From the NCBI GenBank assembly GCA_013334735.1, contig JAAXXA010000001.1:1-44585 (forward strand): 44,585 nt of DNA, in the 5' to 3' direction. Shown piece after piece: positions 21,226 through 44,585 of this stretch. The first letter of the stretch is position 1. Each line of letters opens with the position of its first letter. The notes beneath the pieces are model-generated. The model worked only from the letters and a program-made list of their open reading frames with translations, was not told the DNA's origin and searched no databases. A program made the position numbers and the translations under genes. This DNA is from Bacteroidota bacterium. Its GTDB lineage: Bacteria; Bacteroidota; Bacteroidia; Bacteroidales; CG2-30-32-10.

Positions 21226-22833
21226 TCATTTAATGTCCAGAGTAATTCCGTTTCCGAGATAATAGGTTCCATTATAAATAAATTTTACAAGATCAGTAGC
21301 GTTAGGTGTGGCAGTAAATGTTGGGACTATACCGCCTGCCCACTTAACATCTGAGGGCCAGGAAATTGCCCATCCACCTGTAGCATTCTGGTTTATCATC
21401 AAATTATATATGCCTCCACTCTTACCGTTTGTAAAAATAAATGAACGAGAGGTAGTTAGTGTGATTTCCTGCACGTTGCTGTTATTCCAGTTAATAGTAG
21501 CCGGGGTAAAAAGAGTAGTAAAAGTTCCATCGGAGGAATATGCAGTACCCACGCTGTTTGTAGCATAACCCCTGTAATATATAACAGGGCTGGATGATAA
21601 ACCCGTTCGCGCCTGAGTAAATATTCCGGTTGCAGTGCCACCTTCGGCAACACAATTGGTAGTTGGGTTTGCTGAAGTTCCCCAGCAAGTACCTCTTGAT
21701 GTGATTGTTGCGCCTCCATTTGAAGTTATGTTAGCCCCCATTGTTGCAGAATTGCTTGTAATATAAGTTGCAGTTGGAGTAGTAATTGTAGGAATGTTCA
21801 GAGTAGTAAAAGTGTCATCGCTTGAATAGCCTGTTCCGGCTCCATTTGTCGCGTAACCTCTATAATATATAAGAGTACCGGCCGGCATCCCTGTTCTTGC
21901 ATGGGTAAACACTCCCGAGGTTGTGCTTCCTTCTGCTAAACAATTGGTGGTAGGATTAGCCGAAGTTCCCCAGCAAGTGCCTCTCGCTGTGATTGTAGCG
22001 CCACCATCAGAAGTAACATTAGCGCCCAAAGTAGCGCCTGTAGATGTAATGGAAGCTGAGGTGGGGGAGGTAACTGAAGGCGCACTTGCCAGACATGAAG
22101 CCATATCTGATACAAATGTTGCTGAATTTTCATTAGTAAGAGTATTTCCATTTCCTGATCCGTCAACAAGCGAATTGTTCAAGTGCCACGAAGCCTGAAG
22201 ATTTGACGCGGAATTGATTTCAACACATTTATTATCATTTATTTGCCCCCCTGATCTGGCAACATTCCATAATCGGACATCATCAATTTGGAAATCTCCA
22301 TAACTTTGGACTCCGTTTATGTATAAATTTGTAGAATTATCAATTAAAGTACAACCTCCACCCTGATTGCCGCCTAATCCATTGCCAACAGAAGTCCCGT
22401 TAAAAAAGAACTCCCATCTTGTTGCTGCAGGATTTGCAACTGTTTCTACTATAGCAATATGATACCATGTATTAGTTGTAATTGTTTGTACAATGAATGC
22501 AGATGTAAAAACATTTTCGGTATAAGAGAAATTGTAAATTCCAAATTGACATCCAGAATAAACCCAGTCAACACCATAATACAATAACCAACCTCCACCT
22601 CCATTACCGGCAGTTTTACCCATCACTGTAATTGGAGACCCCGGTTGAGTATTTATTTTAAACCAAAACTCCAAGGTATTGTTTCCGGTGTAAGAAAGAG
22701 AAGCATTGTCAGCCACTTTTAATCTTTGTGAACCAGCAGATGTTAGTTTTGCTGAATATAAATCTTGTGCATGGATATAATATGTTCCTGAATAGTAAAA
22801 TATTAGTAATAAAATTGAAAGAAATTTTTTCAT
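21226..22833 (-). CDS. Secreted CTD-family protein: signal peptide + LamG-like head + 2 Fn3-like modules (subtype 2) + shared C-terminal domain
   Basis: Starts MKKFLSILLLIFYYSGTYYIHAQ. LamG-like motifs: LSYTGNNTLEFWFKI..IDDVRLWNVARSGGQINDNKC. Two copies of ..LGANxTSxGGATITxRGTCWGTSANPTTNC.AEG..IYYRGYATN..GT.YSSD.TFTT are present. The protein ends INWNNSNVQEITLTTSRSFIFTNGKSGGIYNLMINQNATGGWAISWPSDVKWAGG..KFIYNGTYYLGNGITLDIK. Confidence 0.9.
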   Translation of the reverse strand: MKKFLSILLLIFYYSGTYYIHAQDLYSAKLTSAGSQRLKVADNASLSYTGNNTLEFWFKINTQPGSPITVMGKTAGNGGGGWLLYYGVDWVYSGCQFGIYNFSYTENVFTSAFIVQTITTNTWYHIAIVETVANPAATRWEFFFNGTSVGNGLGGNQGGGCTLIDNSTNLYINGVQSYGDFQIDDVRLWNVARSGGQINDNKCVEINSASNLQASWHLNNSLVDGSGNGNTLTNENSATFVSDMASCLASAPSVTSPTSASITSTGATLGANVTSDGGATITARGTCWGTSANPTTNCLAEGSTTSGVFTHARTGMPAGTLIYYRGYATNGAGTGYSSDDTFTTLNIPTITTPTATYITSNSATMGANITSNGGATITSRGTCWGTSANPTTNCVAEGGTATGIFTQARTGLSSSPVIYYRGYATNSVGTAYSSDGTFTTLFTPATINWNNSNVQEITLTTSRSFIFTNGKSGGIYNLMINQNATGGWAISWPSDVKWAGGIVPTFTATPNATDLVKFIYNGTYYLGNGITLDIK

Positions 22834-22877
22834 AGGGTTACATTTTTATTTTTTTAACAATAATTAATAATAAAGTA

Positions 22878-22885
22878 CAAAATTA
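22878..22885 (-). promoter_or_regulatory. Candidate Bacteroidota -7 promoter box (TAATTTTG)
   Basis: Plus caaaatta reads TAATTTTG on the minus strand. It lies about 45 nt upstream of the ATG at 22833. Confidence 0.4.
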
Positions 22886-22917
22886 TAATGTATATAAAAA
22901 AAATAAAAATAATCTAT

Positions 22918-22967
22918 ATGGATTTTTTATGGATAACCCTATTATTTTATATGGATTTTTTATGGAA
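22918..22967 (-). promoter_or_regulatory. Phased ATGGAT hexamer array (4 sites in an 11-bp register) upstream of 21226..22833
   Basis: ATGGAT starts at 22918, 22929 and 22951, and ATGGAA at 22962. The spacings are 11, 22 and 11 nt. The array lies 33 nt upstream (minus sense) of the TAATTTTG box. Confidence 0.6.
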
Positions 22968-22995
22968 AGTAAAAAAATAAAATGATGATAATAAG

Positions 22996-25266
22996 TTATT
23001 TAAAATCTAATGCAGGTGCATATCCTAAATAATAAGTCCCGTTATATACAAATTTCAGAAGATCAATGGAGTTTGCAGTTGTAGTAAATATTGGTGCTGT
23101 ACCACCCGCCCACTTGACATTTGCTGGCCAAGATACAGCCCAGCCACCAGTGTTATCCTGGTTTATCATCAAAGTATATATACCTCCGCTCTTGCCGTTT
23201 GTAAATGTAAAAGAACGAGTTGTTGTTAGTGTAATTTCCTGCACATTGCTGTTATTCCAGTTAACTGTGGCTGGGGTAGGAACAGGAAAGAGGTAACTGA
23301 CAATCACAATTCCTGAACCACCGGAATAAGAGTTGTCTGAAGTTGAGCCTTTTCCGCCACCACCTCCGCCGCCTGTATTAGCTGTTCCTGCTGAGCCTGC
23401 TGAAACATTGGGAGCGTGTGTTCCATTCCCACCACCTCCGGTTCCTCCAGTTCCGAAAGTAGTATATGCTGAACCGCCACCACCTCCGGCATAAGTTACC
23501 GAAGAACCGGAAATACTTGAAGTTCTTCCAACTCCACCATTACCACCTGTTCCCGGAGAAGCATTGGTGCCGGCTGATCCAGCGCCACCACCACCGCCGG
23601 AAGCGTAATTATTGCTGGTGTTAGCAAATCCTGTCCCTCCATTATATCCTTGAGAACCTATACCGCCAGCATTAGTGAACGTTGATTCAGCTGTTCCACC
23701 GCCACCACCAGCGCCTCCATTTTGTCCTTCTCCATTTGTTGTTGAGCCACTATAACTTCCGCCACCTCCTCCTCCGAAAGCAGTGATGGTTCCAAATACT
23801 GAATTTCCCCCATTACCACCGGGAGTTCCATCACTAATTGTGTTAATAACACCAGTGCCTCCGTTACCAACTGTTACAGTTATATTTCCGGAAACTGAAG
23901 TTGAAGTGGAAATAAAACCACCCGCGCCTCCGCCAGCTCCTGTATTGCCTCCACCCGCACCTCCGCCACCTACTATCAAAACATTTACAGTGCCTGTTTC
24001 TGTACAAACCAAAGTTCCATTACTTGTAAAAGTGTGAATTGTGTTTCCGCCTATATGTGTGATGCTACCACCAGTGCATGCATTTGAAAAATAGAGAGGA
24101 TTGTTAATAGCGAAACCATTCGTCAGGGTTCCAAACTGATTGTCAGGGTTCGTAACTATTATATTCCAGTTGCCAACAGCGGCTCCTGTAATTGGACAAG
24201 TACCGTTACTTAATGTTGAAGAATTGGCAAAGTTGAAACCTGTACAATTTATATCACTTTGACCACTCTTAGTGAGCGATACCGTGGCTCCTGACTGAAA
24301 GTTGCTGCCTGTTACAGAACTTATAAAAACAGATCCCGTATTAACACTATTGTTCGGATTTATAGCAGAAACAGTTGGAGCTTCTATTAAATATTCTGAA
24401 GTTGGAGGGGTAAAGTTTGCAGTCCATCTTGCTATTCCTTTTGAAATTCTTAATTCGTCCATCCATCCAGTGAAAAAGTGTGTTGTGTATGTCGGCCAAG
24501 TTCCAACATTCAATACGCCGGTGAGGTTTGCCGGTGTTCCCACGATTGTTCCGCTTGTTTCAACTAATGTTCCATCTAAGTATGCTTTGACAGTAGTTCC
24601 ATATCTAACCCAGGCGAAGTGATGCCATGTGTTTAACGATATTTCATTCATTACAGTTTGAGCGACAAAATGAGTAGTTCCACCTGTTTTTAACACACAT
24701 TCTAAAAATGTCTCTGTTGGACCACCCCATCTATATGCGGCATAGAAAAAATTATTTCCATCTTGACCGGCTGCTTGAGATTGCGAAACAATATTATAGT
24801 AATTTCCAGTAGCTGAGCCGGGTTGTTCTGTAAGGTAAACCCAAGTGTCAATAGTCCAATCTCCATCGCCAAAAGACCAATCGTCGCAATCTGGGGTTGT
24901 TAAGTAATCACCACTTCCATCAAAAAATCCGGAAGCTGTTCCAAATTTATGTTGTGCAGTACTTATTTGTGTATTTCCAACAGGAGTAAAAGTATGAGAA
25001 CTACCTCCTGCGTTGTCGGTGAAGGTGGTAGAGCCGTTTGTACCGTTCATGTGAAGGAGGGTTTTCGTATAGGCATCATTGCCCTGAGCAGAAGTTTCAA
25101 TGGAATTTATATTAAGAAAAGCGAATGTGCTCAGTATTACAAATGCAAGTGAAAAGTTGAACCTTCGACTCGTTCGACTGCGATCACCACAAGTACACTT
25201 AGGGGGACAAGTGTAAAAAGCATATATTATGCTTTTTGAGAATTGATATATATATTTTGTTGACAT
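22996..25266 (-). CDS. CTD-family protein: long N-terminal leader + LamG-like + IPT/TIG-like + glycine-rich (phage tail-fibre-like) domain + shared C-terminal domain
   Basis: ATG at 25266. About 35 residues (..YTCPPKCTCGDRSRTSRR) precede the hydrophobic stretch FNFSLAFVILSTFAFLNINSIETSAQ. LamG-like motifs: LLHMNGTNGSTTFTDNAGG..MDELRISKGIARW. IPT-like motif: PTVSAINPNN..SGATVSLTKSGQSDINC. Gly-rich domain: VNVLIVGGGGAGGGNTGAGGGAGG..ITVTVGNGGTG..SISGSSVTYAGGGGG..GGSGIVIVSY. The protein ends VNWNNSNVQEITLTTTRSFTFTNGKSGGIYTLMINQ... Confidence 0.85.
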   Translation of the reverse strand: MSTKYIYQFSKSIIYAFYTCPPKCTCGDRSRTSRRFNFSLAFVILSTFAFLNINSIETSAQGNDAYTKTLLHMNGTNGSTTFTDNAGGSSHTFTPVGNTQISTAQHKFGTASGFFDGSGDYLTTPDCDDWSFGDGDWTIDTWVYLTEQPGSATGNYYNIVSQSQAAGQDGNNFFYAAYRWGGPTETFLECVLKTGGTTHFVAQTVMNEISLNTWHHFAWVRYGTTVKAYLDGTLVETSGTIVGTPANLTGVLNVGTWPTYTTHFFTGWMDELRISKGIARWTANFTPPTSEYLIEAPTVSAINPNNSVNTGSVFISSVTGSNFQSGATVSLTKSGQSDINCTGFNFANSSTLSNGTCPITGAAVGNWNIIVTNPDNQFGTLTNGFAINNPLYFSNACTGGSITHIGGNTIHTFTSNGTLVCTETGTVNVLIVGGGGAGGGNTGAGGGAGGFISTSTSVSGNITVTVGNGGTGVINTISDGTPGGNGGNSVFGTITAFGGGGGGSYSGSTTNGEGQNGGAGGGGGTAESTFTNAGGIGSQGYNGGTGFANTSNNYASGGGGGAGSAGTNASPGTGGNGGVGRTSSISGSSVTYAGGGGGSAYTTFGTGGTGGGGNGTHAPNVSAGSAGTANTGGGGGGGKGSTSDNSYSGGSGIVIVSYLFPVPTPATVNWNNSNVQEITLTTTRSFTFTNGKSGGIYTLMINQDNTGGWAVSWPANVKWAGGTAPIFTTTANSIDLLKFVYNGTYYLGYAPALDFK

Positions 25267-25333
25267 TATTGTTTTTACTTTTATTGATCTATTAATATAA
25301 TTTATATAATGCTAAAAATTAGTTTGTAAATAT

Positions 25334-25416: not shown

Positions 25417-25443
25417 AGTAAAAAATAATATGCTCATAAAAAA

Positions 25444-28400
25444 TCATTTAATATCTAATGCCGGTGTATCTCCTAAAAAATTAGTTCCGTCATTCACAAA
25501 CTTAAACATGTCAACAGCATTAGCATTAGAGGTTAATGTTGGCGCTGTACCGCCAATCCATTTCACATTTGAAGGCCATGAAACTTTCCATCCGCCTGTT
25601 GCATTTTGCTTAATAATTAAAGTATAAATAGCTCCACTTTTTCCGTTAGTGAAAGTAAACAAACGATCGGTAGTCAAGGTTATTTCCTGTACATTGCTGT
25701 TATTCCAGTTTACTGCTGCAGGACTGTTAATACTGAAACCATTTGTTAAGGTTCCTGTTTGCGTATCAGGGTTTGTAACTACAACATTCCACTGTCCGGT
25801 AGCGGCTCCTGTGATTGGACAAGTTCCGGTAATTAATGTAGTGGAATTGGAAAAAGTGAAACCGGTACAATTTATATTACTTTGACCACTTTTAGTAAGT
25901 TTAACTGTGGCTCCTGATTGAAAATATGTGCCTGTTACAGAAGATATGGAAATAGAAGCTGTATTTGTAGCACTTGATGGAGAAATTGCCGTAACTGTAG
26001 GTGCAGGGTTCATTACAGTAAAATTTCCACCCGGATATAAGAATGTGTGAACCGTGTTTGCTCCATCAGTTGTTTCAGTGCCTCCGGTAATTGTATATGC
26101 AGTAAAATCAGCAGTTTTATATGAAATAATTACAATACCCGAACCACCTGCCTTACCACTTGTATTCCAACCTGCACCACCACCTCCTCCGGTATTTGGA
26201 GTCCCAGCAGTTGAATTATTACTACTACCATCCTCTCCCTTTCCACCACCTCCGGTACCACCAGCGCCTCCGGTTATTGTGCCTCCAGCTCCGCCGCCAC
26301 CGCCATAGGTTACTGATGAACCGGAAATTGAATATGTTACTCCATTTCCACCATTACCTCCTATGCTTGAAGTACCATTTCCACCAACTGCTCCTGCACC
26401 GCCACCACCACCGCCAGATGAGCTGTTTGTGGAATATCCATTTCCGCCATTGTAACCTTGCCCGGAAATACCGTATCCACCTGTCCACGGAGATTGGCTT
26501 CCACCACCACCACCAGATCCTCCTGAATATCCTGCAGTATTATAAGCTCCTTTACCACCGCCAATTGCAGACATATTATCAAAAACAGAATTTCCTCCTG
26601 TAGATTCTGTACTACCACCAGCTCCAACGGTAACGGTATATACTTGTGTTGTAATATTATGTATTGCTTCATAAAGAACTCCGCCGCCACCACCGCCACC
26701 GGTATTGCCACTATTACCACCACCCCCAGCTACAACCAATGCTTTTATAGTACCTATAGGAGCGCTCATTACAACGCTAAAAACCCCACTATTGTTAAAT
26801 GTGTGTACTGTATATGCCCCATTGGTAGTAATGGTACCCCCATTTATAGTGTAAGCAGACCAGTCCGCAGTTTTATAGCTGATGATAACAACACCTGAAC
26901 CACCTGATCCGGCAGTATTTGTTTCATAGCAACCACCGCCGCCACCACCTAATCCATTAGTTCCGGGAATTGCAGCGCTTGGACTGTTATTATAATTTGC
27001 CCCATTTCCTCCTCCTCCAAGCCCACCTGTTCCGTTTGAAACTACACTGGAAGAACCACCACCACCACCACCGGCATAATAAACACTTGATCCTGAGATT
27101 GAATATGGAAGACCGTCACCGCCATTCCCTGAAATACTCTGAGTTCCATTAGCTCCTGCTTTTCCTGCTCCACCACCACCTCCGGTAGAGTAACCGGGAA
27201 TGCCGGAAGCAGTTCCTCCATTGTTTCCTTGTCCTGATGTACCCAAACCCTGACCAAGAGCGCCATATCCATCTCCTCCACCTGAGCCTCCATCAGCGCC
27301 TGCTGGTGTTGCAGAGCCTCCATGTCCTCCGCCAAATGCTGTTATTGTATGAAAGATAGAATTTCCACCATTTGTGGCTCTTGTGTCATAATAAGTGTTG
27401 CCTGACAAACCACCGCCACCAACAGTAACAGTATATGCTTGAGCTGTAACAGTGTGTGATGCGTCATATAACAAACCACCGCCACCACCACCACCACCAT
27501 GCCATCCACCACCTCCACCGCCTCCAGCAACTACAAGTATTTCCATAGCATTTGATGCGGTAACAAGAGTATTAAAAGTTCCATCGGCAGAATATCCTGT
27601 ACCGGCGCTGTTTGTGGCATAACCTCTGTAATATATGAGTGTACCACTTGGAAATCCTGTTCGTGCATGGGTAAATATTCCGGTTGTTGTATTGCCTTCT
27701 GCAACACAGTTTGTGGCTGGGTTTGCCGAAGTACCCCAGCAAACACCTCTCGCGGTAATGGTAGCGCCTCCATCGGAGGTTATATTTGCGCCAAGCAAGG
27801 CAGTATTAGTTGTAATAGCAGTAGCAGTGGGTGAAGTAAGTATAGGCGCAGTTGCAGGCGCCGGTGCGATTGATATTTGTATCATTGCCCATGGAGTTGA
27901 TCCACTAAGACCTGCAGTTTGTGAATAAGACCCAACTGGAGTAATTGCAGCATTATTATCACCTAAGTAAGGAAATGAATTAGATGCCCTTGCAGTAACA
28001 TTTGTATATGTTGTTGGCTGTCCATTTGCTCCAAATCCTGCAATTACCCAACTATTATTTGTAACAGTGGTGATTGAACGTGTGATAGATGTGCCGCTAG
28101 TAGTTCCATAAGAAAGCGCTTCCGGTTGACCTGAAGTTTTTACTCCGGAATAAGTTGCAACCGATGATGCATTAAAGTTAGAACCTGTAATAACTAAGGT
28201 GTTCGCGCCTGTAGCAGGAGACATTAAAATTAGCATTTGAATCCAGTTAGATTGCGAACTCATTTGCTGAACTACCTGTGATGTGAGGCTAACACCATTA
28301 TAAGTTGCAGAAACGGGAGTTGCTGAGGTTAAACCAACAAGAAGCACCATGAAATTTCCACCGGTGTTAGTGAAAGAGTATGATCCAGCTCCACCGGCAT

Positions 28401-28491
28401 TATAAGATGAGTTATATGCTATAGCTGCATTAGCAGAGTTCGAAATACTAAAAAAAAGTATCGTAATTAAAATTAAGAGAAGTTTTTTCAT
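25444..28491 (-). CDS. Secreted CTD-family protein (1015 aa): 'YNGV' domain + Fn3-like (subtype 2) + two glycine-rich domains + IPT/TIG-like + shared C-terminal domain
   Basis: Starts MKKLLLILITILFFSISNSANA. 'YNGV' domain motif: AIAYNSSYNAGGAGSYSFTNTGGNFMVLLVG..VSATYNGVSLT. Gly-rich copy 1 runs MEILVVAGGGGGGGWHGGGGGGGG..YTVTVGGGG..GGSGVVIISY. Copy 2 runs IKALVVAGGGGNSGNTGGGGGGG..YTVTVGAGG..GGSGIVIISY. Each is followed by YTI.GGT.TT.GA.TVHTF. IPT-like motif: PTVTAISPSS..SGATVKLTKSGQSNINC. The protein ends VNWNNSNVQEITLTTDRLFTFTNGKSGAIYTLIIKQ... Confidence 0.9.
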   Translation of the reverse strand: MKKLLLILITILFFSISNSANAAIAYNSSYNAGGAGSYSFTNTGGNFMVLLVGLTSATPVSATYNGVSLTSQVVQQMSSQSNWIQMLILMSPATGANTLVITGSNFNASSVATYSGVKTSGQPEALSYGTTSGTSITRSITTVTNNSWVIAGFGANGQPTTYTNVTARASNSFPYLGDNNAAITPVGSYSQTAGLSGSTPWAMIQISIAPAPATAPILTSPTATAITTNTALLGANITSDGGATITARGVCWGTSANPATNCVAEGNTTTGIFTHARTGFPSGTLIYYRGYATNSAGTGYSADGTFNTLVTASNAMEILVVAGGGGGGGWHGGGGGGGGLLYDASHTVTAQAYTVTVGGGGLSGNTYYDTRATNGGNSIFHTITAFGGGHGGSATPAGADGGSGGGDGYGALGQGLGTSGQGNNGGTASGIPGYSTGGGGGAGKAGANGTQSISGNGGDGLPYSISGSSVYYAGGGGGGSSSVVSNGTGGLGGGGNGANYNNSPSAAIPGTNGLGGGGGGCYETNTAGSGGSGVVIISYKTADWSAYTINGGTITTNGAYTVHTFNNSGVFSVVMSAPIGTIKALVVAGGGGNSGNTGGGGGGGVLYEAIHNITTQVYTVTVGAGGSTESTGGNSVFDNMSAIGGGKGAYNTAGYSGGSGGGGGSQSPWTGGYGISGQGYNGGNGYSTNSSSGGGGGGAGAVGGNGTSSIGGNGGNGVTYSISGSSVTYGGGGGAGGTITGGAGGTGGGGKGEDGSSNNSTAGTPNTGGGGGAGWNTSGKAGGSGIVIISYKTADFTAYTITGGTETTDGANTVHTFLYPGGNFTVMNPAPTVTAISPSSATNTASISISSVTGTYFQSGATVKLTKSGQSNINCTGFTFSNSTTLITGTCPITGAATGQWNVVVTNPDTQTGTLTNGFSINSPAAVNWNNSNVQEITLTTDRLFTFTNGKSGAIYTLIIKQNATGGWKVSWPSNVKWIGGTAPTLTSNANAVDMFKFVNDGTNFLGDTPALDIK

Positions 28492-34766: not shown

Positions 34767-37364
34767 TTATTTTGCATCCAAAGCTGTTAAATACCCTATA
34801 TAAATAGTGCCATCAAACGCAAATTTAACAAGGTCAACGGCATTTGCTGTTGTAGTGAATATTGGCATTATGCCTCCGGGCCACTTTACATTTGAAGGCC
34901 ATGAAACTGTCCATCCGCCTGTAGAATTCTGTTTTATTATGAGCGTGTAAAGACCTCCGCTCTTGCCATTGATAAATGATAACGACCGATTGGCTGCTAA
35001 TGTAATTTCCTGTACATTGCTATTGTTCCAGTTAACTGTAGCAGTTGCAGGAGTGGAAAAAGTTACCTGATTTCCATAGCTTATGCCAACTGAATTAATT
35101 GCATAAGCCCTTACGTAATAAAGAGTTCCAGAGGTTAAGCCAGTCATTGAAGAAGTAAACGATCCTGTTGTTCCAGAGGAAGTTGATTTGCTGTTCGCTG
35201 TTGTAGGAGTTGCAGAAGTATTCCAACAAACACCTCGCTCTGTTATTGTTGCTCCACCATCTGAAGTTACATTTCCATTTCCGATGGCAGTTGTTGAAGT
35301 AATACTTGTTACCGCCTGAGTAGTAATAGTAGGTGCAAAAGAAGGAGAAACAAATCCATAAACATAAAATGGCTGATCTCTGTTTGTTTGCGCAGCCCAT
35401 GCAGGCGTATTGATTTCATAATACATGCCATTACCTGAATGAGTAGGGGAAGAGTTGTCATATCCAACCATAGTATAGTCAGCACCACCTCCACTAATTT
35501 CAACAAGAATAACATAATGAGTATTTGGAATCATTGTGTATGTATTATCAAAATTAAATGAGATAAGTTGATAACTGGTCGTTAAAGCAGAGGCATTTTG
35601 CGAATTTGTGGATGTTGCCAGAACAGAGCCTCCAATTGAAGAAGTACCATAAGTACCCGAGTGCGAATATAATTTTGCTACAATAGTACCAGTGGGTGAA
35701 CCGGTACCTTTTTTAAGATAAAACAATGCATTGCTAAGTGTGTATGAAGTACCATTATTAGGAGTGGTAAATGACTGCCCCCAACGCGTAAAGATAGTTG
35801 AATTAAGACCTTGATCTTCGGATGTGTTTGTCTCTGAGTAGCTGTCAATAAGTATTGCTACAGCAGTAACAGTGTATGTTCCGCTACTTGTAAAAGTATG
35901 GATTGTGTTACCACCAGATGTTGTAATAGTTCCTCCAGTGGCTGAAAGGGTTCCTGTAGGATAGGAGATGATCACGATACCGGAACCACCATTACCACCT
36001 GTCCCGTAAGCAGTATTATAACCACCGCCGCCGCCTCCACCGCCTGTGTTTGTAGTACCATTTTGCCCATTTGAGGACGAATTACTTCCATTTCCGCCAC
36101 CAATATTACCCCCTGTTCCGGCGGTTCCCCCAAGACGTCCGTCTTTGCCTCCTCCTCCTCCTGCTCCATAATAAACAGAACTACCTGAAATAGTGTAAGC
36201 AATCCCATCTCCTCCAATTCCGGCCTGTCCATTATTATTTGAACTTGCATTTCCGCCTACAGCACCTGCTCCACCACCACCTCCTCCTCCAACATAACCG
36301 CCTGCGGCTGTTCCTCCATTATTTCCCTGCAAAGTTGTTCCATTTCCGCCAATCTGTCCCGGACTATTTGCTCCGCCACCTCCTGACCCGCCGTTATGCC
36401 CGACAGAAGGAGGATTGTCCGAAGCGCCGCCACCACCACCAATTGCTGTTATTGCTTCAAAAATGGAATTTCCTCCATCTTGACCATGATAGAGGGGAGA
36501 ACTTCTCTGTCCACCAAGACCACCGGAGCCAATCGTTATCGAATAAGAACCAAGGGGAATAGAGTAAGAATTTGAAAAGAAAACTCCTCCTCCTCCTCCT
36601 CCTCCTCCATTTCCAGAAAGGTTATTAAAACCACCTCCACCTCCACCACCAGCAACTACTAATACTTTCATAGGAGGTGACATCTGAGGGGGAACTCCTG
36701 AATTCAAAGCTATACCCATAGCATAACTATTACCTGATAATGCCGCGGTACCATTAAGTGTTGTAGCAGATGCAGGGCTTATTGCCGCATTATTGTCATA
36801 AAAGCCCACAAAATTGGAAGCAGTGCCTCTAAGTGTAGTACCTGCATCAGGGCTTATTGCCCCACAATAATTACTACGAAAAGCGGCTACCACCCACGAA
36901 TTATTTAAGGTCGGTGTAATTGTAATTGATTTTGCCGTGCCCGACTGAAAGTTACTTGTATATGCTTCATAGGCGCCAACTCCGCTATATGAAACAGCTT
37001 GTGTTGACCAGTCACCAGCGCCTGTGAAAGTAACCGAAAAATTATTTGTTCCGGTTGGAGCATAAAGTGTAATAAAAAGCCATGTTCTATCGGAACCTTG
37101 AGGATTCTCGGTAGCAACCTGAGTCATAGCAACACCGCCATAAGTAACAGCGCTAATAGTTTGACTTGTGCTACCTTGAATATAAAGCAAAACCGCGTTA
37201 CCCCCAACGTTATTAAAACTAATTGATTGAGGAGAACTTGGACCCACTACATAATTAAATACGTTACTGTTGTATGCTATGGATGCCGAAGCCTTTGAGA
37301 TCACCAAAATGCCTAATGCTGTTAAAATAATTGATGTTTTAATTAATACTAATAGTTTTTTCAT
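34767..37364 (-). CDS. Secreted CTD-family protein: 'YNGV' domain + glycine-rich domain + unassigned beta-rich domain + Fn3-like (subtype 1) + shared C-terminal domain
   Basis: Starts MKKLLVLIKTSIILTALGILVISKASA. 'YNGV' domain motif: SIAYNSNVFNYVVGPSSPQSISFNNVGGNAVLLYIQG..ISAVTYGGVAMT. Gly-rich domain: MKVLVVAGGGGGGGFNNLSGNGGGGGGGG..YSITIGSGGLGG..GGSGIVIISY. The protein ends VNWNNSNVQEITLAANRSLSFINGKSGGLYTLIIKQ... Confidence 0.9.
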   Translation of the reverse strand: MKKLLVLIKTSIILTALGILVISKASASIAYNSNVFNYVVGPSSPQSISFNNVGGNAVLLYIQGSTSQTISAVTYGGVAMTQVATENPQGSDRTWLFITLYAPTGTNNFSVTFTGAGDWSTQAVSYSGVGAYEAYTSNFQSGTAKSITITPTLNNSWVVAAFRSNYCGAISPDAGTTLRGTASNFVGFYDNNAAISPASATTLNGTAALSGNSYAMGIALNSGVPPQMSPPMKVLVVAGGGGGGGFNNLSGNGGGGGGGGVFFSNSYSIPLGSYSITIGSGGLGGQRSSPLYHGQDGGNSIFEAITAIGGGGGASDNPPSVGHNGGSGGGGANSPGQIGGNGTTLQGNNGGTAAGGYVGGGGGGGAGAVGGNASSNNNGQAGIGGDGIAYTISGSSVYYGAGGGGGKDGRLGGTAGTGGNIGGGNGSNSSSNGQNGTTNTGGGGGGGGYNTAYGTGGNGGSGIVIISYPTGTLSATGGTITTSGGNTIHTFTSSGTYTVTAVAILIDSYSETNTSEDQGLNSTIFTRWGQSFTTPNNGTSYTLSNALFYLKKGTGSPTGTIVAKLYSHSGTYGTSSIGGSVLATSTNSQNASALTTSYQLISFNFDNTYTMIPNTHYVILVEISGGGADYTMVGYDNSSPTHSGNGMYYEINTPAWAAQTNRDQPFYVYGFVSPSFAPTITTQAVTSITSTTAIGNGNVTSDGGATITERGVCWNTSATPTTANSKSTSSGTTGSFTSSMTGLTSGTLYYVRAYAINSVGISYGNQVTFSTPATATVNWNNSNVQEITLAANRSLSFINGKSGGLYTLIIKQNSTGGWTVSWPSNVKWPGGIMPIFTTTANAVDLVKFAFDGTIYIGYLTALDAK

Positions 37365-37393: not shown

Positions 37394-39001
37394 TTAAAAT
37401 TGTTTGATTTCTGTTTCATAATAATAAGCACCGTCATATAAAAATTTTATGATTGCTACAGCATTGCTTGTTGATGTTAATATTGGCGCGATGCCGGTAT
37501 CGCTCCACTTAACATTTGCGGGCCATGAAACAGCCCATCCTCCTGTTACGTCTTGTTTTACAATAAGATGATAAATACCTCCACTCTTGCCATTTGTAAA
37601 TGTGAAAGAACGATTGGCAGTTAAAGTAATTTCTTGCACATTACTAATGTTCCAGTTAACTGTAGCAGTTGCGGGAGAGGAAAATGTTACCTGATTTCCA
37701 TAGCTTATTCCAACAGAATTAATTGTATAAGCCCTTACATAATATGAAGTGCCTGCTGTTAAACCTGTTATTGAAGCTGTGAAAGCTCCTGTGGTACCGG
37801 TAGAAGTTGCTTTACTGTTAGCAGTGGTAGGAGTTGTAGAGGTATTCCAACATACGCCACGCTCTGTTATTGTTGCTCCGCCATCTGAAGTTACATTCCC
37901 ATTTCCTGTGGCAGTTGTTGCTGCAATACTTGTTACCGCTTGAGTTGTAACGGTTGGGATATTAAGAGTTGTAAAAGTTACTTCGTTTCCATAGCTTATT
38001 CCTACTGAATTAATTGCATAAGCCCTAACGTAATAAAGAGTTCCTATAGCTAATCCGGTCATTGAGGAGGTAAACGTTCCCGTGGTACCGGCGGAAGTAG
38101 CTTTACTGTTAGCAGTTGTAGGAGTTGAAGAAGTATTCCAACAAATACCACGCTCTGTTATGGTTGCTCCACCATCTAATGTTACAGTTCCATTTCCTGT
38201 GGCTGTTGTTCCTCCAATACTGCTGACTGCCTGAGTCGAAAGAGTAGCGATAGAGGTAAATGGATAAGCAAAACCATTTCCGGAATTATAAAGATTAGTT
38301 ACTTCAGCATCACTAAGAACTCTTGTCCAAAGACCTAATTCATCAATCATCCCACTAAAGAAAAGTTCTTCTATTGATGTCTTTCGGTTTCCAAAACGAA
38401 TATTTGGGCTTCCATACGACTGCACAAAATTTGGTGTGATAGTATTCGGAGTGTTGTTGTTCACAGAAATAGACAAAGTTCCGCCGCTTGTAAACCGGCA
38501 AGCTACAAAATACCACGTTCCTGTAAAAAGAGAGGTAAGATCACCTACATTTGTATTATTACCTGTGGTTGCTATTCCAACTCTTAAGTCATTACCTGGT
38601 CCAATAAAAAAATATATCCCTTTAGCTGAAGAACTTTCATCATAGGCAGTAAAAATCCAATGATGTGCGGAATTTAAAAGTGCAGGTTTTACCCAACATG
38701 TAATAGTGAAATTTCCAGTAGGCTCAAATGCGCTTCCTGCGATTCCCGTAAAATATTTTGTGGAGTTTGGGCTTCCAAAATCCGCTCCATTGTTTATTTT
38801 CCCTGAAGCATAAGCTACAGATCCGACATTTGTAATCGTATTTCCTCCACCAGTAGCGTCATTACCGTTTCCATCGAATTTGTAATAAACGCTCAATCCT
38901 GTAATAAGCGGTGACTGAGCGAAACAGAATGCAAAAGGATATACAAAGTAGGATATAATAAATATTCCGGCGAATGCTTTGCTAATAATTTTAGTTTTCA
39001 T
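37394..39001 (-). CDS. Secreted CTD-family protein: LamG-like head + 2 Fn3-like (subtype 1) + shared C-terminal domain
   Basis: Starts MKTKIISKAFAGIFIISYFVYPFAFCFAQ. LamG-like motifs: LSVYYKFDGNGNDATGGGN..FTITCWVKP..IDELGLWTRVLSDAEVTNLYNSGNGFAYPF. The protein ends VNWNISNVQEITLTANRSFTFTNGKSGGIYHLIVKQ..VSWPANVKW..IKFLYDGAYYYE. Confidence 0.9.
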   Translation of the reverse strand: MKTKIISKAFAGIFIISYFVYPFAFCFAQSPLITGLSVYYKFDGNGNDATGGGNTITNVGSVAYASGKINNGADFGSPNSTKYFTGIAGSAFEPTGNFTITCWVKPALLNSAHHWIFTAYDESSSAKGIYFFIGPGNDLRVGIATTGNNTNVGDLTSLFTGTWYFVACRFTSGGTLSISVNNNTPNTITPNFVQSYGSPNIRFGNRKTSIEELFFSGMIDELGLWTRVLSDAEVTNLYNSGNGFAYPFTSIATLSTQAVSSIGGTTATGNGTVTLDGGATITERGICWNTSSTPTTANSKATSAGTTGTFTSSMTGLAIGTLYYVRAYAINSVGISYGNEVTFTTLNIPTVTTQAVTSIAATTATGNGNVTSDGGATITERGVCWNTSTTPTTANSKATSTGTTGAFTASITGLTAGTSYYVRAYTINSVGISYGNQVTFSSPATATVNWNISNVQEITLTANRSFTFTNGKSGGIYHLIVKQDVTGGWAVSWPANVKWSDTGIAPILTSTSNAVAIIKFLYDGAYYYETEIKQF

Positions 39002-39033: not shown

Positions 39034-40848
39034 TTAAAAATGAATATTTAATGATTTTCCATTTTCTAAATAATTAGTTCCATCAAATACAAATTTAATA
39101 ATGTCAATTGTATTAGGTGCGCTTGTTAATGTTGGCTCTACGGCATCTATCCACCCCACATTTGCCGGCCAGCTAACAGTCCATCCTCCAGTCGCATTCT
39201 GTTTAATAAGCAAAGTATATAGCCCTCCACTCTTGCCATTTGTAAATGTGAAAGAACGATTGGCAGATAATGTAATTTCCTGCACATTGCTGTTGTTCCA
39301 ATCTACTGTAGCAGGGATAAGAGTAAGCGTTGTGACAGTTGCGTCAGCATAAGATGAAGTACATGGTGAATTATTGATAGTCCATCGTAATACATAACTC
39401 CCTGCTCCTCCATTGGGTGTAAATATAGTATTATAAACTGATGTAGTTCCAAATTGGCTTGAAGATGTGCTCGGACCACTAACTACTGACCATGTGCCTG
39501 TACCAATAGAAGGACTATTTCCTGAAAGTGTTGCGCTACCTGTAGTGTATATGGTTTGAGTGGAACCATTCGTTGCTGTAGTAGGAGAAGCTTTTAAAGT
39601 TTGTGTAGCGCTTGCTGAAGTACTACCTGCTTTAATACTCGTGGTAGTCAGGTCTGTTGTTGTTATTGCATCAACGGCAATATTATGACCGTCAGTAACC
39701 GAGGAGGCAATATCTGTTGTTATCCAAAAATAATAGGTGTTGCTAATAGTTAGAGTAGGGCTTGTGAAAGAAGCAAGCGTATGTGATCCGGTTCCGAGTG
39801 ATGTTGTTAAATCAGTTCCAAGTTGTGTGGCGGTTGATAAACTATTTGTAGAGCTTCCCCACAACTGAAATTTTGTAATCTCTGAGGAAGTATATGTTCC
39901 GGTAGTTGTAAAACCTACGTCAGTGAGATTTCCATCACCATTAGTAACTGCTAAACTAAAACTTTGTATTGCAACTTTTGTAGTGCCGGCGCATTGATTC
40001 GCTGCTGAAGTTGCATTTGATCCTAAAGTAATGGTTGGGTAGCCATTATAAAGTTTCGAGACTTCGGTTGCTGTCAATGCCCGGTTGAAAAAAGCGACAT
40101 CGTCAATGAAACCCTTAAAAAAAGAGCCGGGAGTTAAACTTGAACCAATCCAGGTTTTCCCCGATCTTGTAGTTTCATCTCCTCCACTAGTAGAGGCCGC
40201 CCACGATCCTATGGGAGAACCATCAATATATCCTATAAAATTTGTTCCGTCAAAAGTAGCACATACGTGGTGCCACACTTCGGTTGAAAGTTCTCCCGAG
40301 GTGTTTCCTCCTGACCAACCACCTGATGCATGCCTCCAAAAATAAAACCTTTTTGTTGAACCATCATTGTAGTAGTTTATTTCATATAATACTCCTCCAT
40401 TGCCAGCTGCTTTTTTATTATCTAACCACAATATTTCAGCTCCATCTGCAGAGTTAGGAATAGGGTTAGCCGCTAAATATATCCATGTTGAAAAAGTAAA
40501 ATTGCTTGAAGAAACAAAACCATAATAGGAATCTATGTTAAGATATTTTGAAGAGTTAGTAGCTCCGTAATCAGCAGCATTTCCAAACTTTCCCGCGTTG
40601 AAAGCGATGGAATTATTGTTTGTTAAACTATATGAACCTTTGCTGTCGGTAGTATTCGAAAGACGATAATACGCAACAAGGTTTGCATCATTGAAAAGGG
40701 GTGTAGAGTATAGTTCTATAGTTTGGGCTTGGGTATTAAAACTAAGTAAATTAAAAACAAGCAATCCAAGAATATACACTAACAGATGGTGCATTGAAAT
40801 TTTAATCTGCTTTTTACATATTTTCGAAGTATTGGTCTGTTTTTTCAT
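39034..40848 (-). CDS. Secreted CTD-family protein: LamG-like head + two unassigned Ig-like/beta modules + shared C-terminal domain
   Basis: Starts MKKQTNTSKICKKQIKISMHHLLVYILGLLVFNLLSFNTQAQ. LamG-like motifs: LVAYYRLSNTTDSKGSYSLTNNN..FIDDVAFFNRALTATEVSKLYNG. The middle region (NQCAGTTKVAIQSFSLAVTNGDGNLT..YYFWITTDIASSVTDGHNIAV; GTGTWSVVSGPSTSSSQF..LRWTINNSPC) is shared with 40889..42829. The protein ends VDWNNSNVQEITLSANRSFTFTNGKSGGLYTLLIKQ... Confidence 0.9.
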   Translation of the reverse strand: MKKQTNTSKICKKQIKISMHHLLVYILGLLVFNLLSFNTQAQTIELYSTPLFNDANLVAYYRLSNTTDSKGSYSLTNNNSIAFNAGKFGNAADYGATNSSKYLNIDSYYGFVSSSNFTFSTWIYLAANPIPNSADGAEILWLDNKKAAGNGGVLYEINYYNDGSTKRFYFWRHASGGWSGGNTSGELSTEVWHHVCATFDGTNFIGYIDGSPIGSWAASTSGGDETTRSGKTWIGSSLTPGSFFKGFIDDVAFFNRALTATEVSKLYNGYPTITLGSNATSAANQCAGTTKVAIQSFSLAVTNGDGNLTDVGFTTTGTYTSSEITKFQLWGSSTNSLSTATQLGTDLTTSLGTGSHTLASFTSPTLTISNTYYFWITTDIASSVTDGHNIAVDAITTTDLTTTSIKAGSTSASATQTLKASPTTATNGSTQTIYTTGSATLSGNSPSIGTGTWSVVSGPSTSSSQFGTTSVYNTIFTPNGGAGSYVLRWTINNSPCTSSYADATVTTLTLIPATVDWNNSNVQEITLSANRSFTFTNGKSGGLYTLLIKQNATGGWTVSWPANVGWIDAVEPTLTSAPNTIDIIKFVFDGTNYLENGKSLNIHF

Positions 40849-40888
40849 GATTTTACAAATATTATATTTTAAAATAAATATACATTTC

Positions 40889-42829
40889 TTAATATTGATT
40901 TATTCCATTTTCAAAATAATTGGAACCGTCATAAGCAAATTTCATAAAAGCTACAGAATTTGGTGTGGTAATTAATGTTGGAGCTGTGCCACTAGTCCAC
41001 CTAATGTTTGCAGGCCAGATAATCATATAGCCACCCGTGTTATTCTGTTTTATAAACAGCGTATAAAGACCGCCACTCTTTCCATTTGTAAATAATAAAG
41101 AGCGATTGGCGGTCAATGTAATTTCTTGCACATTGCTGTTGTTCCAATCAACTGTGGCAGGGGTGGGAATAACTACTGAAATAGTTGCATCAGCATCAGA
41201 AGAGGTACAAGGAGAATTGCTAATTGACCAGCGTACTACATAGCTTCCTGCTCCACCGGCAGGAGTGAAAGTTGTATTATAAACAGATGTGCTTCCAAAC
41301 TGGCTTGATGATGTACTCGGACCGCTTACTACCGTCCATGCTCCTGAGCCAATAGAAGGAATATTTCCGGAAAGCGTTGCGCTGCCTGTAGTGCTTATAA
41401 TTTGAGCAGATCCGTTAGTAGCAGTAGTAGGAGTAGATTTTAAAGTTTGCGTATTACCTGCAGAGGCGCTGCCGGCTTTAGTGCTTGTAGATGTAAGGTC
41501 TCCGGTAGCTATTTCATTAACTGCAATAGTATGACCATTAGTAACAGAAGAAGCAATATCTGCTGTTATCCAAAAATAATATGTAACGCCACTAGTTAAT
41601 GTAGGACTTGTAAAAGCCGCGAATGAACGAGTTCCGGCGTTTCCTGACGAAGCTAAATCAACGCCCAATTGGGCAGTGCCGGCATCATTAATATTATTGA
41701 CAGTTCCTTTGTACAATTGATATTTTGTAATATCTGCCTGAGTATAAGATCCGGTAGTTGTAAACCCTATACCAGTAAGGTTTCCATTGCTGTTAGTAAC
41801 AGCCAAACTAAAACTTTGTATTACAACTTTTGTTGTTCCGGCGCACTGATTCGCCACAGAAGGAGCATTTGCACTTAAAGTGATTGTAGAAGATAGTGTG
41901 GGAGTCCATGTTCCGCTTGAAGTGAATGTCCAAATATCATTACCGCCAGATGTTGTATGAATTCCACCTGCTGATGCCGGATTAGAAATTAAACCAATTG
42001 TAGCGGAAATGATTACGATGCCAGAACCTCCTGAGCCTCCACTTCCACCGCTACTGCCATTCCAGTTTGCTCCACCACCACCACCACCGGTATTTGCAGT
42101 TCCGTTAGCACCGTTAGCTCCTCCTGCACCGCCACCACCAACTCCTCCTGCGCCTCCACTTCCTCCATTATTTATAGAGCCTCCGCCACCACCGCCGCCG
42201 GCATAAGTAACTGACGAGCCACTGATTGATGATACAGAACCTGCACCACCATGGTGAGTACCAGCTGCACTAGCGCCACCACCGCCACCGCCATCATTGG
42301 CAGCAGACCCGCTTCCATCTCCTCCATTATTACCTTGCCCTGCAGTACCTGGTCCATTCAAAGCTCCTCCAGAACCACCTGTTCCACCAGTAACATTCCA
42401 ATGTTTTCCAGCTCCGCCACCGATAGCACTTACAAGAGACCCGAATGAAGAAGCGTTTCCATTGCTACCATTAGATGCACCTATACCACCTGCTCCACCG
42501 GCACCAACTGTTATTGTGTATGCTTGAGGAGAAACAGAAGTACTTCCAGTTAGAAATCCACCGGCTCCTCCACCATTTCCCTGAAAAGTGTTACTTGCAC
42601 TTCCTCCGCTACCTCCACCTCCACCAGCCACAACAAGATAATTTACACTTACTTGCGAAAAAGCGAAATTTAATGTTAGCGCGTTGACAATTAAAAAGAC
42701 AAGAAGCACCGAAAAAGCAATGCAAATCCTATTATCGGCAACTGGTAGGTTGTTTTTTGCTTTTAAAGAAATTGAATTTCTGCTTAAATTCAGAAAACTA
42801 ATTTCTGATAATTGATTTATTTTTTTCAT
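40889..42829 (-). CDS. CTD-family protein: extended MKKINxLSE leader + glycine-rich domain + the same two middle modules as 39034..40848 + shared C-terminal domain
   Basis: Starts MKKINQLSEISFLNLSRNSISLKAKNNLPVADNRICIAFSVLLVFLIVNALTLNFAFSQ/VSVNYLVVAGGGGGSGG..YTITVGAGGAGG..SISGSSVTYAGGGGGG..GGSGIVIISA. The middle modules are paralogous to 39034..40848. The protein ends VDWNNSNVQEITLTANRSLLFTNGKSGGLYTLFIKQ..WPANIRW..KFAYDGSNYFENGINQY. Confidence 0.85.
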   Translation of the reverse strand: MKKINQLSEISFLNLSRNSISLKAKNNLPVADNRICIAFSVLLVFLIVNALTLNFAFSQVSVNYLVVAGGGGGSGGSASNTFQGNGGGAGGFLTGSTSVSPQAYTITVGAGGAGGIGASNGSNGNASSFGSLVSAIGGGAGKHWNVTGGTGGSGGALNGPGTAGQGNNGGDGSGSAANDGGGGGGASAAGTHHGGAGSVSSISGSSVTYAGGGGGGGSINNGGSGGAGGVGGGGAGGANGANGTANTGGGGGGANWNGSSGGSGGSGGSGIVIISATIGLISNPASAGGIHTTSGGNDIWTFTSSGTWTPTLSSTITLSANAPSVANQCAGTTKVVIQSFSLAVTNSNGNLTGIGFTTTGSYTQADITKYQLYKGTVNNINDAGTAQLGVDLASSGNAGTRSFAAFTSPTLTSGVTYYFWITADIASSVTNGHTIAVNEIATGDLTSTSTKAGSASAGNTQTLKSTPTTATNGSAQIISTTGSATLSGNIPSIGSGAWTVVSGPSTSSSQFGSTSVYNTTFTPAGGAGSYVVRWSISNSPCTSSDADATISVVIPTPATVDWNNSNVQEITLTANRSLLFTNGKSGGLYTLFIKQNNTGGYMIIWPANIRWTSGTAPTLITTPNSVAFMKFAYDGSNYFENGINQY

Positions 42830-42860
42830 TAGTTTAAATTTTAATTTGTTAAAAGTTTTC

Positions 42861-44585
42861 TTAATATTGGTTTACCCCGATTTCAAAATAATTAGAACCA
42901 TCGTAAGCAAATCGTATATTAGCTATAGAATTTGGTGTGGTAATTAATGTTGGGGCAGTACCACCGGTCCACCTTATGTCTGCAGGCCAGATAATCGAAA
43001 AGCCGCCCGTGTTATTTTGTTTAATAAAAAGCGTATAAAGCGCACCATTCCTTCCATTTGTAAAAGTAAAAGAGCGATTGGCAGTTAAAGTAATTTCCTG
43101 CACATTACTATTGTTCCAGTTTACTGTAGCAGGGGTAAAAGTAGTAAAAGTTCCATCGGCGGAATATCCCGTTCCCACGCTGTTTGTTGCATAACCCCTG
43201 TAATATATGAGTGTGCCTGCAGGTAAACCTGTTCTTGCCTGTGTGAATACGCCTGTTGCTGTATTGCCTTCGGCTATGCAATTGGCGGTAGGATTAGCCG
43301 AAGTTCCCCAACAAGTGCCTCTCGCCGTGATAGCAGCGCCTCCATCAGAAGTAATATTAGCGCCCAATGTAGCAGTATTTACTGTAATATTTGATGCCGT
43401 AGGAGAGGTAACAGTTGGAATAATGAGCGTTGTAAAAGTTACTTGATTTCCATAGCTTATACCTACCGAATTAATTGCATAAGCCCTAACGTAATAAAGA
43501 GTACCGTTAGTTAAACCCGACATTGACGCGGTAAACGCTCCGGTAGTTCCAGAAGAAGTTGCTTTGCTGTTAGCTGTAGTAGGAGTTGTAGAAGTATTCC
43601 AACAAACACCACGCTCTGTTATTGTTGCTCCTCCATCTGCTGATACATTTCCATTAGCTGTGGCTGTTGTAGAAGTAATACTTGTAACCGCTTGAGTTGT
43701 AACGCTTGGGGAATTAAGAGTAGTAAAAGTTACACCATCTCCGTAGCTTATGCCTACCGAATTAATTGCATAAGCTCTCACGTAATAAAGAGTTCCTATA
43801 GTTAATCCGGTCATTGAAGCGTTAAATGCTCCTGTAGTACCGGCGGAAGTAGCTTTACTGTTAGCAGTTGTAGGAGTTGAAGAAGTATTCCAACATAGGC
43901 CCCTTTCGATTATTGTCGCTCCGCCATCGGCTGTAACATTTCCATTTCCTGTGGCTGTTGTTGCTGTAATATTTGTAACTGCTTGAGTAGTAACTGTAGG
44001 AACAGTTGCAACAATAAATGGATACTGCCAGCCTGCGCCACTATTATAAAGAGATGTAACTTCAGCAGCAGTTAAGGCGCGTGACCAAAAACCAACTTCA
44101 TCAAAATATCCGGGTGTATTAGTATTGTCCATTCCAATAAAACCTCGGTTTGAAGCGGGATAAACACCCCAACCACTTCCACCATCACTTGGATTACATT
44201 GGGAAACAAGAGAACCATCAATATATAATTTAAGATTGCTTGTTCCATTACCGGCGTATGTCCATACCACATGATGCCAATTAGTTATACCCAAAGCTAT
44301 TTGGTATTCAGCAAAATATTCGTTATAACCATATTGATAAGCGCGAAGCCACTTGGTTCCTGCTGTATGCCCCCATAACTGTCCATCTCCGTAATCTAAT
44401 CCATAAGACATCGCGTTTCCGCCATTTATTTTTGTTGTCCAAACATTTATTCCATAACAGCCCGTGGGATAAGCAGCTGTTGGCGCTTCTGTTCTTAATT
44501 TTACCCACATTGAAATAGACCGAGCATTTGTAAGACTTGTTACACCGTATGTTTCTGATGTTTTACCAAAATATTTTGAACCGGC
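42861..44585 (-). CDS. CTD-family protein, N-terminus outside the window: LamG-like + 3 Fn3-like (subtype 1, 1, 2) + shared C-terminal domain
   Basis: The track starts it at the ATG at 44510. My translation upstream stays open to the window edge (..AGSKYFGKTSETYGVTSLTNARSIS-MWVKLRTE..), and this reads as the usual LamG ..SISxWVK strand. So the real start lies beyond 44585. Later motifs: FDEVGFWSRALTAAEVTSLYNSGAGWQYPF, then ERGLCWNTS.. / ERGVCWNTS.. / ARGTCWGTSANPTANC... The protein ends VNWNNSNVQEITLTANRSFTFTNGRNGALYTLFIKQ... Confidence 0.85.
   Translation of the reverse strand, partial: AGSKYFGKTSETYGVTSLTNARSISMWVKLRTEAPTAAYPTGCYGINVWTTKINGGNAMSYGLDYGDGQLWGHTAGTKWLRAYQYGYNEYFAEYQIALGITNWHHVVWTYAGNGTSNLKLYIDGSLVSQCNPSDGGSGWGVYPASNRGFIGMDNTNTPGYFDEVGFWSRALTAAEVTSLYNSGAGWQYPFIVATVPTVTTQAVTNITATTATGNGNVTADGGATIIERGLCWNTSSTPTTANSKATSAGTTGAFNASMTGLTIGTLYYVRAYAINSVGISYGDGVTFTTLNSPSVTTQAVTSITSTTATANGNVSADGGATITERGVCWNTSTTPTTANSKATSSGTTGAFTASMSGLTNGTLYYVRAYAINSVGISYGNQVTFTTLIIPTVTSPTASNITVNTATLGANITSDGGAAITARGTCWGTSANPTANCIAEGNTATGVFTQARTGLPAGTLIYYRGYATNSVGTGYSADGTFTTFTPATVNWNNSNVQEITLTANRSFTFTNGRNGALYTLFIKQNNTGGFSIIWPADIRWTGGTAPTLITTPNSIANIRFAYDGSNYFEIGVNQY

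Follow-up and report, generated by a model that had tools for sequence, protein, structure and literature searches.

The window analysed here, a stretch of 44,585 bp, represents one entire contig of the metagenome-assembled genome (MAG) 'Bacteroidetes bacterium HGB12'. It contains 21 large open reading frames (ORFs), all co-oriented on the minus strand, and 12 of them encode proteins that end in one and the same domain of about 92 amino acids (aa), here referred to as the tail. We were able to assign this tail to the Pfam family PF26209 (Phage_phiTE_241_C, a name obtained from a context look-up), i.e., to an already catalogued domain. The initial annotation had described the tail as unassigned and possibly new, a view that is overturned by the PF26209 tags on the window proteins P0031 and P0178, by matches of all 12 tails to PHROG families and by 133 fold matches to phage proteins. 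The domain is known and the window proteins are new members of it; what we describe is an unusually large expansion, in a cellular genome, of an ordinary domain.

The assignment to PF26209 rests on precomputed tags, and the Pfam copy that we scanned predates the PF26209 model. Tags for PF26209 together with PF13385 are attached to P0031 (ORF 21226-22833) and P0178 (ORF 30318-32210), and the PF26209 tag (PF26209.2) is also found on the HGB12 paralogues P0001-P0004, P0041 and P0264; the window proteins P0030 and P0040 have no PF26209 tag. Scans of full proteins and isolated tails against Pfam-A and NCBIfam, in library versions that lack PF26209, left the tail unmatched even at E ≤ 10 and recognised just the N-terminal parts or heads (Laminin_G_3, Gly_rich_2) and Fn3-like stretches. 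Since proteins tagged as PF26209 were likewise unmatched in the scanned copy, this null result is an artefact of the library date.

All 12 tails match the C-terminal ends of the PHROG tail-fibre families 9017 (1e-10), 7760, 22179, 3904 and 4549, and these matches are limited to the last ~90 aa of the window proteins. Two profiles were used for more distant comparisons, a broad one built from 221 diverse domain copies and a shallow one built from the 12 paralogues. In a single-sequence search, the broad profile matched residues 734-782 of phiTE_241, which is annotated in Pectobacterium phage phiTE (JQ015307) as a 'putative tail fiber protein' of 793 aa, with 16.7 bits and E 2.7e-7, and the shallow profile aligned weakly with the same motif block (hhalign E 0.014). 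Judged from these alignments, the homology of the tail to the phiTE_241 C-terminus appears distant but consistent. The broad profile also placed the domain at residues 516-607 of 612 in gp30 of Curtobacterium phage Kithara and at residues 205-293 of 298 in gp010 of Caulobacter phage S2B.

Structure prediction points in the same direction. The AlphaFold model of one tail, taken from the ORF at 30318..32210, reached a predicted local distance difference test score (pLDDT) of 85 and shows seven strands in a nearly all-beta arrangement, which suggests a self-contained beta-sandwich domain. This model matched 133 predicted phage structures in BFVD at E ≤ 0.001 (the best with a template modelling score of 0.85 and 40-49% identity), and the named matches include tail fiber, fiber protein and 'phage tail fibre C-terminal domain-containing' entries. 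In a Foldseek search of the PDB, none of the 39 matches at E ≤ 10 was named as a cargo C-terminal domain (CTD) of the type IX secretion system (T9SS). The best of these PDB matches had an E of 0.09, the weak top matches being pieces of phage tailspikes, baseplates or spikes, and PDB sequence searches with 12- and 50-sequence profiles gave spurious matches only. A cryo-electron microscopy study of phiTE models only the N-terminal fibre parts and names no gp241 (PMC11972413). Literature searches on PF26209, HGB12 and related terms found nothing relevant. PF26209 is a named but experimentally uncharacterised family.

A six-frame scan of the window with the broad profile detected exactly 12 tail copies, one per protein, in agreement with the twelve minus-strand genes and with the coding segments given in the initial annotation. 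All copies stop 0-4 codons short of the stop codon, with E-values from 1e-36 to 1e-42:

Tail copy 1: 4215..4490, minus strand, profile E 3.6e-36
Tail copy 2: 21232..21507, minus strand, profile E 7e-38
Tail copy 3: 23005..23277, minus strand, profile E 2e-41
Tail copy 4: 25456..25725, minus strand, profile E 2e-40
Tail copy 5: 28530..28802, minus strand, profile E 2e-37
Tail copy 6: 30324..30602, minus strand, the copy modelled with AlphaFold (m9455ff592fb4), pLDDT 85
Tail copy 7: 32251..32520, minus strand, profile E 1.4e-38
Tail copy 8: 34779..35051, minus strand, profile E 2e-40
Tail copy 9: 37409..37675, minus strand, WNISNVQ variant, DNA core with 5 mismatches
Tail copy 10: 39043..39315, minus strand, profile E 3e-40
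Tail copy 11: 40898..41164, minus strand, profile E 1.3e-37
Tail copy 12: 42873..43136, minus strand, profile E 2.6e-36

Pairwise identity among the 12 tails is 52-79%, and 25 columns are invariant, the motif WN.SNVQEITL among them. Their ends read ..G..LDIK, ..LNIN, ..INQY or ..IKQF and contain no hydrophobic stretch. A 29-nucleotide DNA core, which had been reported as conserved in every copy, is present with at most three mismatches in 11 of the 12 copies (chance expectation 0), and the twelfth site (37626-37654, in tail copy 9) has five mismatches. The possibility that this core acts at the DNA level, for instance as a recombination site, was considered and rejected: its synonymous sites vary (Asn is encoded six times by AAT and six times by AAC, and Thr and Leu by three codons each), and invariant positions outside the core show equal codon dominance. 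Since the core encodes ten consecutive invariant residues, mostly by low-degeneracy codons, and its synonymous variation is the same as elsewhere, no DNA-level explanation is needed.

The domain is widespread. An exhaustive profile search yielded 20,860 clusters at E ≤ 0.001, of which 4,916 reached E ≤ 1e-10. By tblastn we found it in 48 phage records under the names 'tail fiber' or 'minor tail protein', the hosts including Curtobacterium, Arthrobacter, Rhodococcus, Caulobacter, Bradyrhizobium, Erwinia, Salmonella, cyanobacteria, Leptospira and the archaeon Halorubrum. In the phages inspected (Kithara gp30, S2B gp010, phiTE_241) the domain forms the extreme C-terminus of the gene. It is further present in archaeal tailed viruses, in MAGs labelled as Acidobacteriota, Planctomycetota and Chlorobiota, and in many cellular secreted proteins. 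A profile scan of GTDB genome contigs found just two loci (L003, L004), both of them prophage tail regions beside terminase, lytic tail and virion structural genes; the same contigs gave no match to a degenerate version of the DNA core.

The position of the domain was counted over the 177 closest relatives. It is C-terminal in 112 of these and non-terminal in 65, with a median of 218 residues following it, and 32 relatives carry two to nine copies. Signal-peptide-like N-termini are commoner in the non-terminal than in the C-terminal class (40 vs 25), and in P0088 the domain lies upstream of Gly_rich_2, the reverse of the order in the window proteins. Such internal, repeated and reversed-order copies imply that the domain is a self-contained module and not inherently a terminal tag. 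Together, the match to a named family, the non-terminal (65/177) and repeated (32/177) copies and the occurrence in cytoplasmically assembled phage fibres speak against the novelty claimed for the tail and leave a sorting or export role without positive support. For this lineage an export tag is an unsupported and unlikely possibility, and of the functions that had been suggested for the tail (export, attachment or docking) it is attachment or docking that stays plausible, in the form of ordinary ligand binding by a domain of phage-fibre tips.

What, then, might the tail do? The fibre ends of the PHROG families (9017, 7760, 22179, 3904, 4549, 19976) and of phiTE gp241, Kithara gp30 and S2B gp010 belong to the same sequence family and have the same predicted fold; they share with the HGB12 tails a length of ~90 aa, the extreme C-terminal position and the motif Y.L...Q(D/N).TGG....WP....W.GG..P.L......D...F..DG..Y. 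Unlike virion fibres, however, the HGB12 proteins carrying the tail are cellular proteins with Sec or lipoprotein signals and LamG or Gly_rich_2 heads, and they form a family of ~38 paralogues in one genome. The usual pattern of phage fibres is moreover reversed in HGB12, where the tail is constant and the rest is variable. In phages the domain sits at the distal fibre end, in cells it is carried by exported proteins, and it contains three loop segments (NWNNSNVQE, TNGKSGG and QN.TGGW) that are invariant among the HGB12 paralogues. On these grounds we favour, at about even probability, the view that the tail is a constant binding end-piece comparable to the distal end of a phage fibre. The invariant loops would recognise one ligand or partner common to all heads, for which a cell-surface glycan or a shared surface partner is most plausible, and the diverse heads would all be brought to a single address or kept there. 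The tail would not itself be an export signal. The initial annotation had drawn a shared export, attachment or docking function from the combination of a constant module with varied heads, and this combination does suggest a common 'address'.

Several points weigh against a binding end-piece. Neither PDB sequence and fold searches nor the phiTE study (PMC11972413) revealed an experiment or a solved structure for any PF26209 member, so that binding is deduced from the position in phage fibres, and the ligand is putative. Binding alone would also not account for the way in which Sec-exported members other than lipoproteins cross an outer membrane. In addition, the strong conservation of the motif in phages whose unrelated hosts range from Actinobacteria to haloarchaea fits a structural cap or an assembly function better than specific receptor recognition.

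This last point leads to a possible, if clearly less probable, alternative, namely that the tail nucleates or caps the assembly (e.g., trimerisation) of the secreted proteins and has no external ligand. Phage fibres are trimers and many of them fold from a C-terminal nucleus; in the PHROG fibre families and in cultured phages the domain is always terminal. Neighbouring genes in the window contain collagen triple-helix repeats, and a PF26696 'PTL_trimer' module is tagged in an orthologue of a neighbour. Tandem arrays of up to nine copies and N-proximal single copies, however, do not suit an obligate terminal nucleus, and the monomer model folds confidently alone. LamG and Fn3 modules are usually monomeric beads.

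The proteins of the HGB12 family, the 12 of the window included, follow a general plan, in which a Sec or lipoprotein signal is followed by a variable head (LamG, Gly_rich_2, immunoglobulin, DNRLRE or unique), by zero to three Fn3-like spacers and by the tail. By inspection, ten or eleven of the 12 N-termini in the window resemble Sec signal peptides; one signal is lipoprotein-like (ORF 32239-34749), and the contig end truncates the last gene at its N-terminus. A Fn3-like repeat of ~94 aa, which we call the stalk repeat, occurs in one to three copies upstream of the tail in nine of the 12 proteins. The genes are as follows:

Gene 1: 4209..6026, minus strand, 605 aa as deposited (P0045), signal peptide, ~240-aa head, three Fn3-like stalk repeats, tail
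Gene 2: 21226..22833, minus strand, 535 aa (NTW31029, P0031), signal peptide, Laminin_G_3, two stalk repeats, tail; tagged PF26209 and PF13385
Gene 3: 22996..25266, minus strand, 756 aa, Laminin_G_3 and Gly_rich_2, without stalk repeat, tail
Gene 4: 25444..28491, minus strand, 1015 aa (NTW31031), signal peptide, head, one internal stalk repeat, Gly_rich_2, tail
Gene 5: 28521..30284, minus strand, 587 aa (HGB12_00080), long N-terminal extension and hydrophobic segment, Gly_rich_2, two stalk repeats, tail
Gene 6: 30318..32210, minus strand, 630 aa (P0178), signal peptide, Laminin_G_3, three stalk repeats, tail; tagged PF26209 and PF13385
Gene 7: 32239..34749, minus strand, 836 aa (NTW31034, HGB12_00090), lipoprotein-like signal (..IIMNSC), unique ~500-aa head, two stalk repeats, tail
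Gene 8: 34767..37364, minus strand, 865 aa, signal peptide, head, Gly_rich_2, one stalk repeat, tail
Gene 9: 37394..39001, minus strand, 535 aa (P0038), signal peptide, Laminin_G_3, two stalk repeats, tail
Gene 10: 39034..40848, minus strand, 604 aa, signal peptide, Laminin_G_3, a different spacer in common with gene 11 (69% over 328 aa), tail
Gene 11: 40889..42829, minus strand, 646 aa (P0034), long N-terminal extension and hydrophobic segment, Gly_rich_2, spacer of the gene 10 type, tail
Gene 12: 42861..44585, minus strand, partial at the contig end, 574 aa as deposited (P0040), LamG-type head, three stalk repeats, tail

The heads had been taken to be mutually unrelated, which does not hold for many pairs: several LamG heads are homologous, with 48% identity over 457 aa between the proteins starting at 21226 and 30318 and 53% over 589 aa between those at 30318 and 42861. 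Homologous heads and common stalk repeats imply a family mosaic rather than one tag on unrelated proteins. The orthologue of gene 7 in another assembly (P0050; GCA_016307145.1, L009:10001-11869) has a head of 48% identity joined straight to a tail of 62% identity, without the two Fn3-like repeats, and we conclude that the spacers are optional and are inserted or lost as a cassette. Part of the gene 7 head also begins the HGB12 proteins P0049 and P0053, which seem to have no signal peptide. The N-terminal extension MKKIN(H/Q)LSE(L/I)S..., ~35-45 aa ahead of the hydrophobic segment, is found in the two Gly_rich_2 proteins 28521-30284 and 40889-42829 (window positions 30150-30284 and 42690-42829) and in HGB12_11205 on another contig; it could be an atypical extended signal peptide or the result of a mis-called start.

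Stalk repeats of the same type precede FISUMP or the T9SS tail PF18962 in other Bacteroidota, which implies that the C-terminal module is exchangeable. The tail resembles T9SS CTDs, FISUMP and dockerins in its organisation and belongs to none of them by any test of membership applied. With the T9SS CTDs (type A, TIGR04183/PF18962; type B, TIGR04131/PF13585) it has in common that a constant, beta-rich C-terminal module of ~90 aa is carried by dozens of diverse secreted Bacteroidota proteins, and after the stalk repeats it takes the very place of PF18962. In contrast to these CTDs, PF26209 is widespread in phages and outside the Bacteroidota and is often internal or repeated. With the type A and type B models, neither full proteins (E ≤ 0.1) nor isolated tails (E ≤ 10) gave a match, and on the genuine PF18962 tails of P0181 and P0292 the 221-domain profile returned negative scores only. 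The earlier statement that the tail is of neither T9SS type is thus borne out by hidden Markov model, BLAST, Foldseek and profile comparisons alike.

FISUMP (Fib_succ_major, PF09603/TIGR02145) likewise caps the same Fn3-like stalks as a constant C-terminal module in large paralogue families of Bacteroidota, but it is an unrelated domain of ~187 aa that shows no homology to the tail. In the dockerin-cohesin system a small constant terminal module gives varied heads, catalytic or binding, a common docking site; isolated tails gave no Pfam match to dockerin (PF00404) at E ≤ 10 and contain no duplicated calcium-binding segments, and no cohesin-bearing scaffold was identified for the HGB12 tails. 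A sortase or exosortase signal, in which a motif is followed by a hydrophobic helix and a basic tail, is not seen in the tail sequences, in line with the initial annotation, which had seen no hydrophobic end of this kind.

The exchange of tails on common stalks is one point in favour of the idea that the phage-derived domain has been co-opted in this lineage as a C-terminal signal for an outer-membrane export or attachment machine, and would represent a third, non-canonical type of CTD. We nonetheless regard this idea as unlikely. It would account for the outer-membrane export of the non-lipoprotein members and agrees with a tail that is strictly C-terminal on ~38 proteins with diverse heads in this MAG; moreover, none of the 20 large secreted proteins of the contig carries a canonical T9SS tail. 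Yet the tail has neither sequence nor structural similarity to T9SS tails, the domain is often internal or repeated, and the window contains no candidate machinery. The family abounds in phage fibres, which are made in the cytoplasm, in archaeal tailed viruses and in the MAGs of other phyla listed above, and it is thus plentiful where machinery of this kind does not exist. Just as improbable, in our view, is the related proposal that a phage fibre tip has been domesticated as a C-terminal 'address label' for a secretome of ~38 proteins, used either for attachment to a surface or scaffold or for recognition by an outer-membrane machine; if true, the label would correspond in function to T9SS CTDs or dockerins and would have come from a virus.

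The homology of the tail to phage fibre ends, and the occurrence of Gly_rich_2 and Fn3/Ig modules in phage fibres, could also suggest that the genes are genuine phage or prophage tail-fibre genes or part of a phage-tail-like particle locus. This explanation is effectively refuted. Nearly all members have signal peptides, and family scans of the 21 large ORFs (44.6 kb) gave no match to terminase, capsid, sheath, tube or baseplate, nor to any other phage structural or packaging protein; the proteins are not, over their whole length, virion fibres from a phage tail module. The ~38 copies are scattered over many contigs, and the neighbours are secreted FISUMP/PKD/LamG proteins. A prophage or tailocin locus was rejected for the signal peptides and for the lack of phage structural matches in these scans.

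Outside the window, ~26 more HGB12 proteins with the domain are encoded on other contigs, which brings the number to about 38 genes in the MAG. One 15.4-kb contig contains an array of at least six such genes with LamG, immunoglobulin and DNRLRE heads. If the locus tags, which reach HGB12_17955, increase by the usual step of five, the family would amount to roughly 1% of the genes of the MAG. The same kind of island is present in GCA_016307145.1. In HGB12 the family is a mosaic that is tandemly amplified and has the tail as its constant end-module.

The contig itself resembles an island of fibre-like surface proteins. From position 25444 onward the intergenic gaps measure merely 17-40 bp, which suggests co-transcription of this part of the array. 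The large ORFs without the tail mostly encode secreted PKD/Fn3/collagen proteins that terminate in FISUMP or LamG, and the immediate neighbours of the tail-bearing genes are FISUMP-ending genes. Many of these upstream minus-strand genes share another constant module (QGVSINTTG..ADNSA.LD.SS..QG.LIPRMT), which is N-terminal and directly follows the signal peptide. The genes with this module end in FISUMP or LamG and lie at the following positions:

869-2605, minus strand
6319-8610, minus strand
10719-13007, minus strand
13122-15275, minus strand
15298-17613, minus strand
17678-18982, minus strand
19021-20862, minus strand

Two genes adjoining those with the QGVSINTTG module contain the collagen triple-helix repeats. 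Across its full length, ORF 17678-18982 shares 39% identity with a GCA_016307145.1 protein that is tagged with PF26696 'PTL_trimer', fn3 and Laminin_G_3. The consecutive ORFs 8653-10737 and 10719-13007 overlap by 19 nucleotides as listed. ORFs 8653-10737 and 13122-15275 have a common start of ~40 aa (window positions 10600-10737 and 15150-15275, minus strand), MNLAKRPPMADHS(L/F)SRTRFGKH(F/L)IKI(S/N)NNVSKTK, which precedes the usual start KTK.P.ALCL. This stretch probably derives from a leader or promoter region upstream that was duplicated and is read through as an ORF. Between 26001 and 28000 the local content of guanine plus cytosine (GC) rises to 47% with a GC skew of -0.22, coinciding with the Gly_rich_2 coding region of ORF 25444-28491 (minus strand). 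The sole large gene of the contig that does not encode a modular secreted protein is ORF 2827-3825 (minus strand, 332 aa), which lies in an AT-rich segment (31.6% GC vs about 40%), has no signal peptide and gave no match in Pfam, NCBIfam or PADLOC; a PADLOC search for defence systems gave no match.

Since the family is already present in Pfam and PHROGs, the tail does not matter as a domain discovery. Its importance is modest and lies elsewhere: PF26209 comprises more than 20,000 clusters without a solved structure or a tested function, and a functional assignment would extend to a great many fibres of phages and surface proteins of cells. The uncultured HGB12, with its ~38 genes, offers a clear case in which cells have put a virion end-module to new use, as the unvarying part of an otherwise variable repertoire of surface or secreted proteins, and finding the ligand of the tail would show how this repertoire is addressed.

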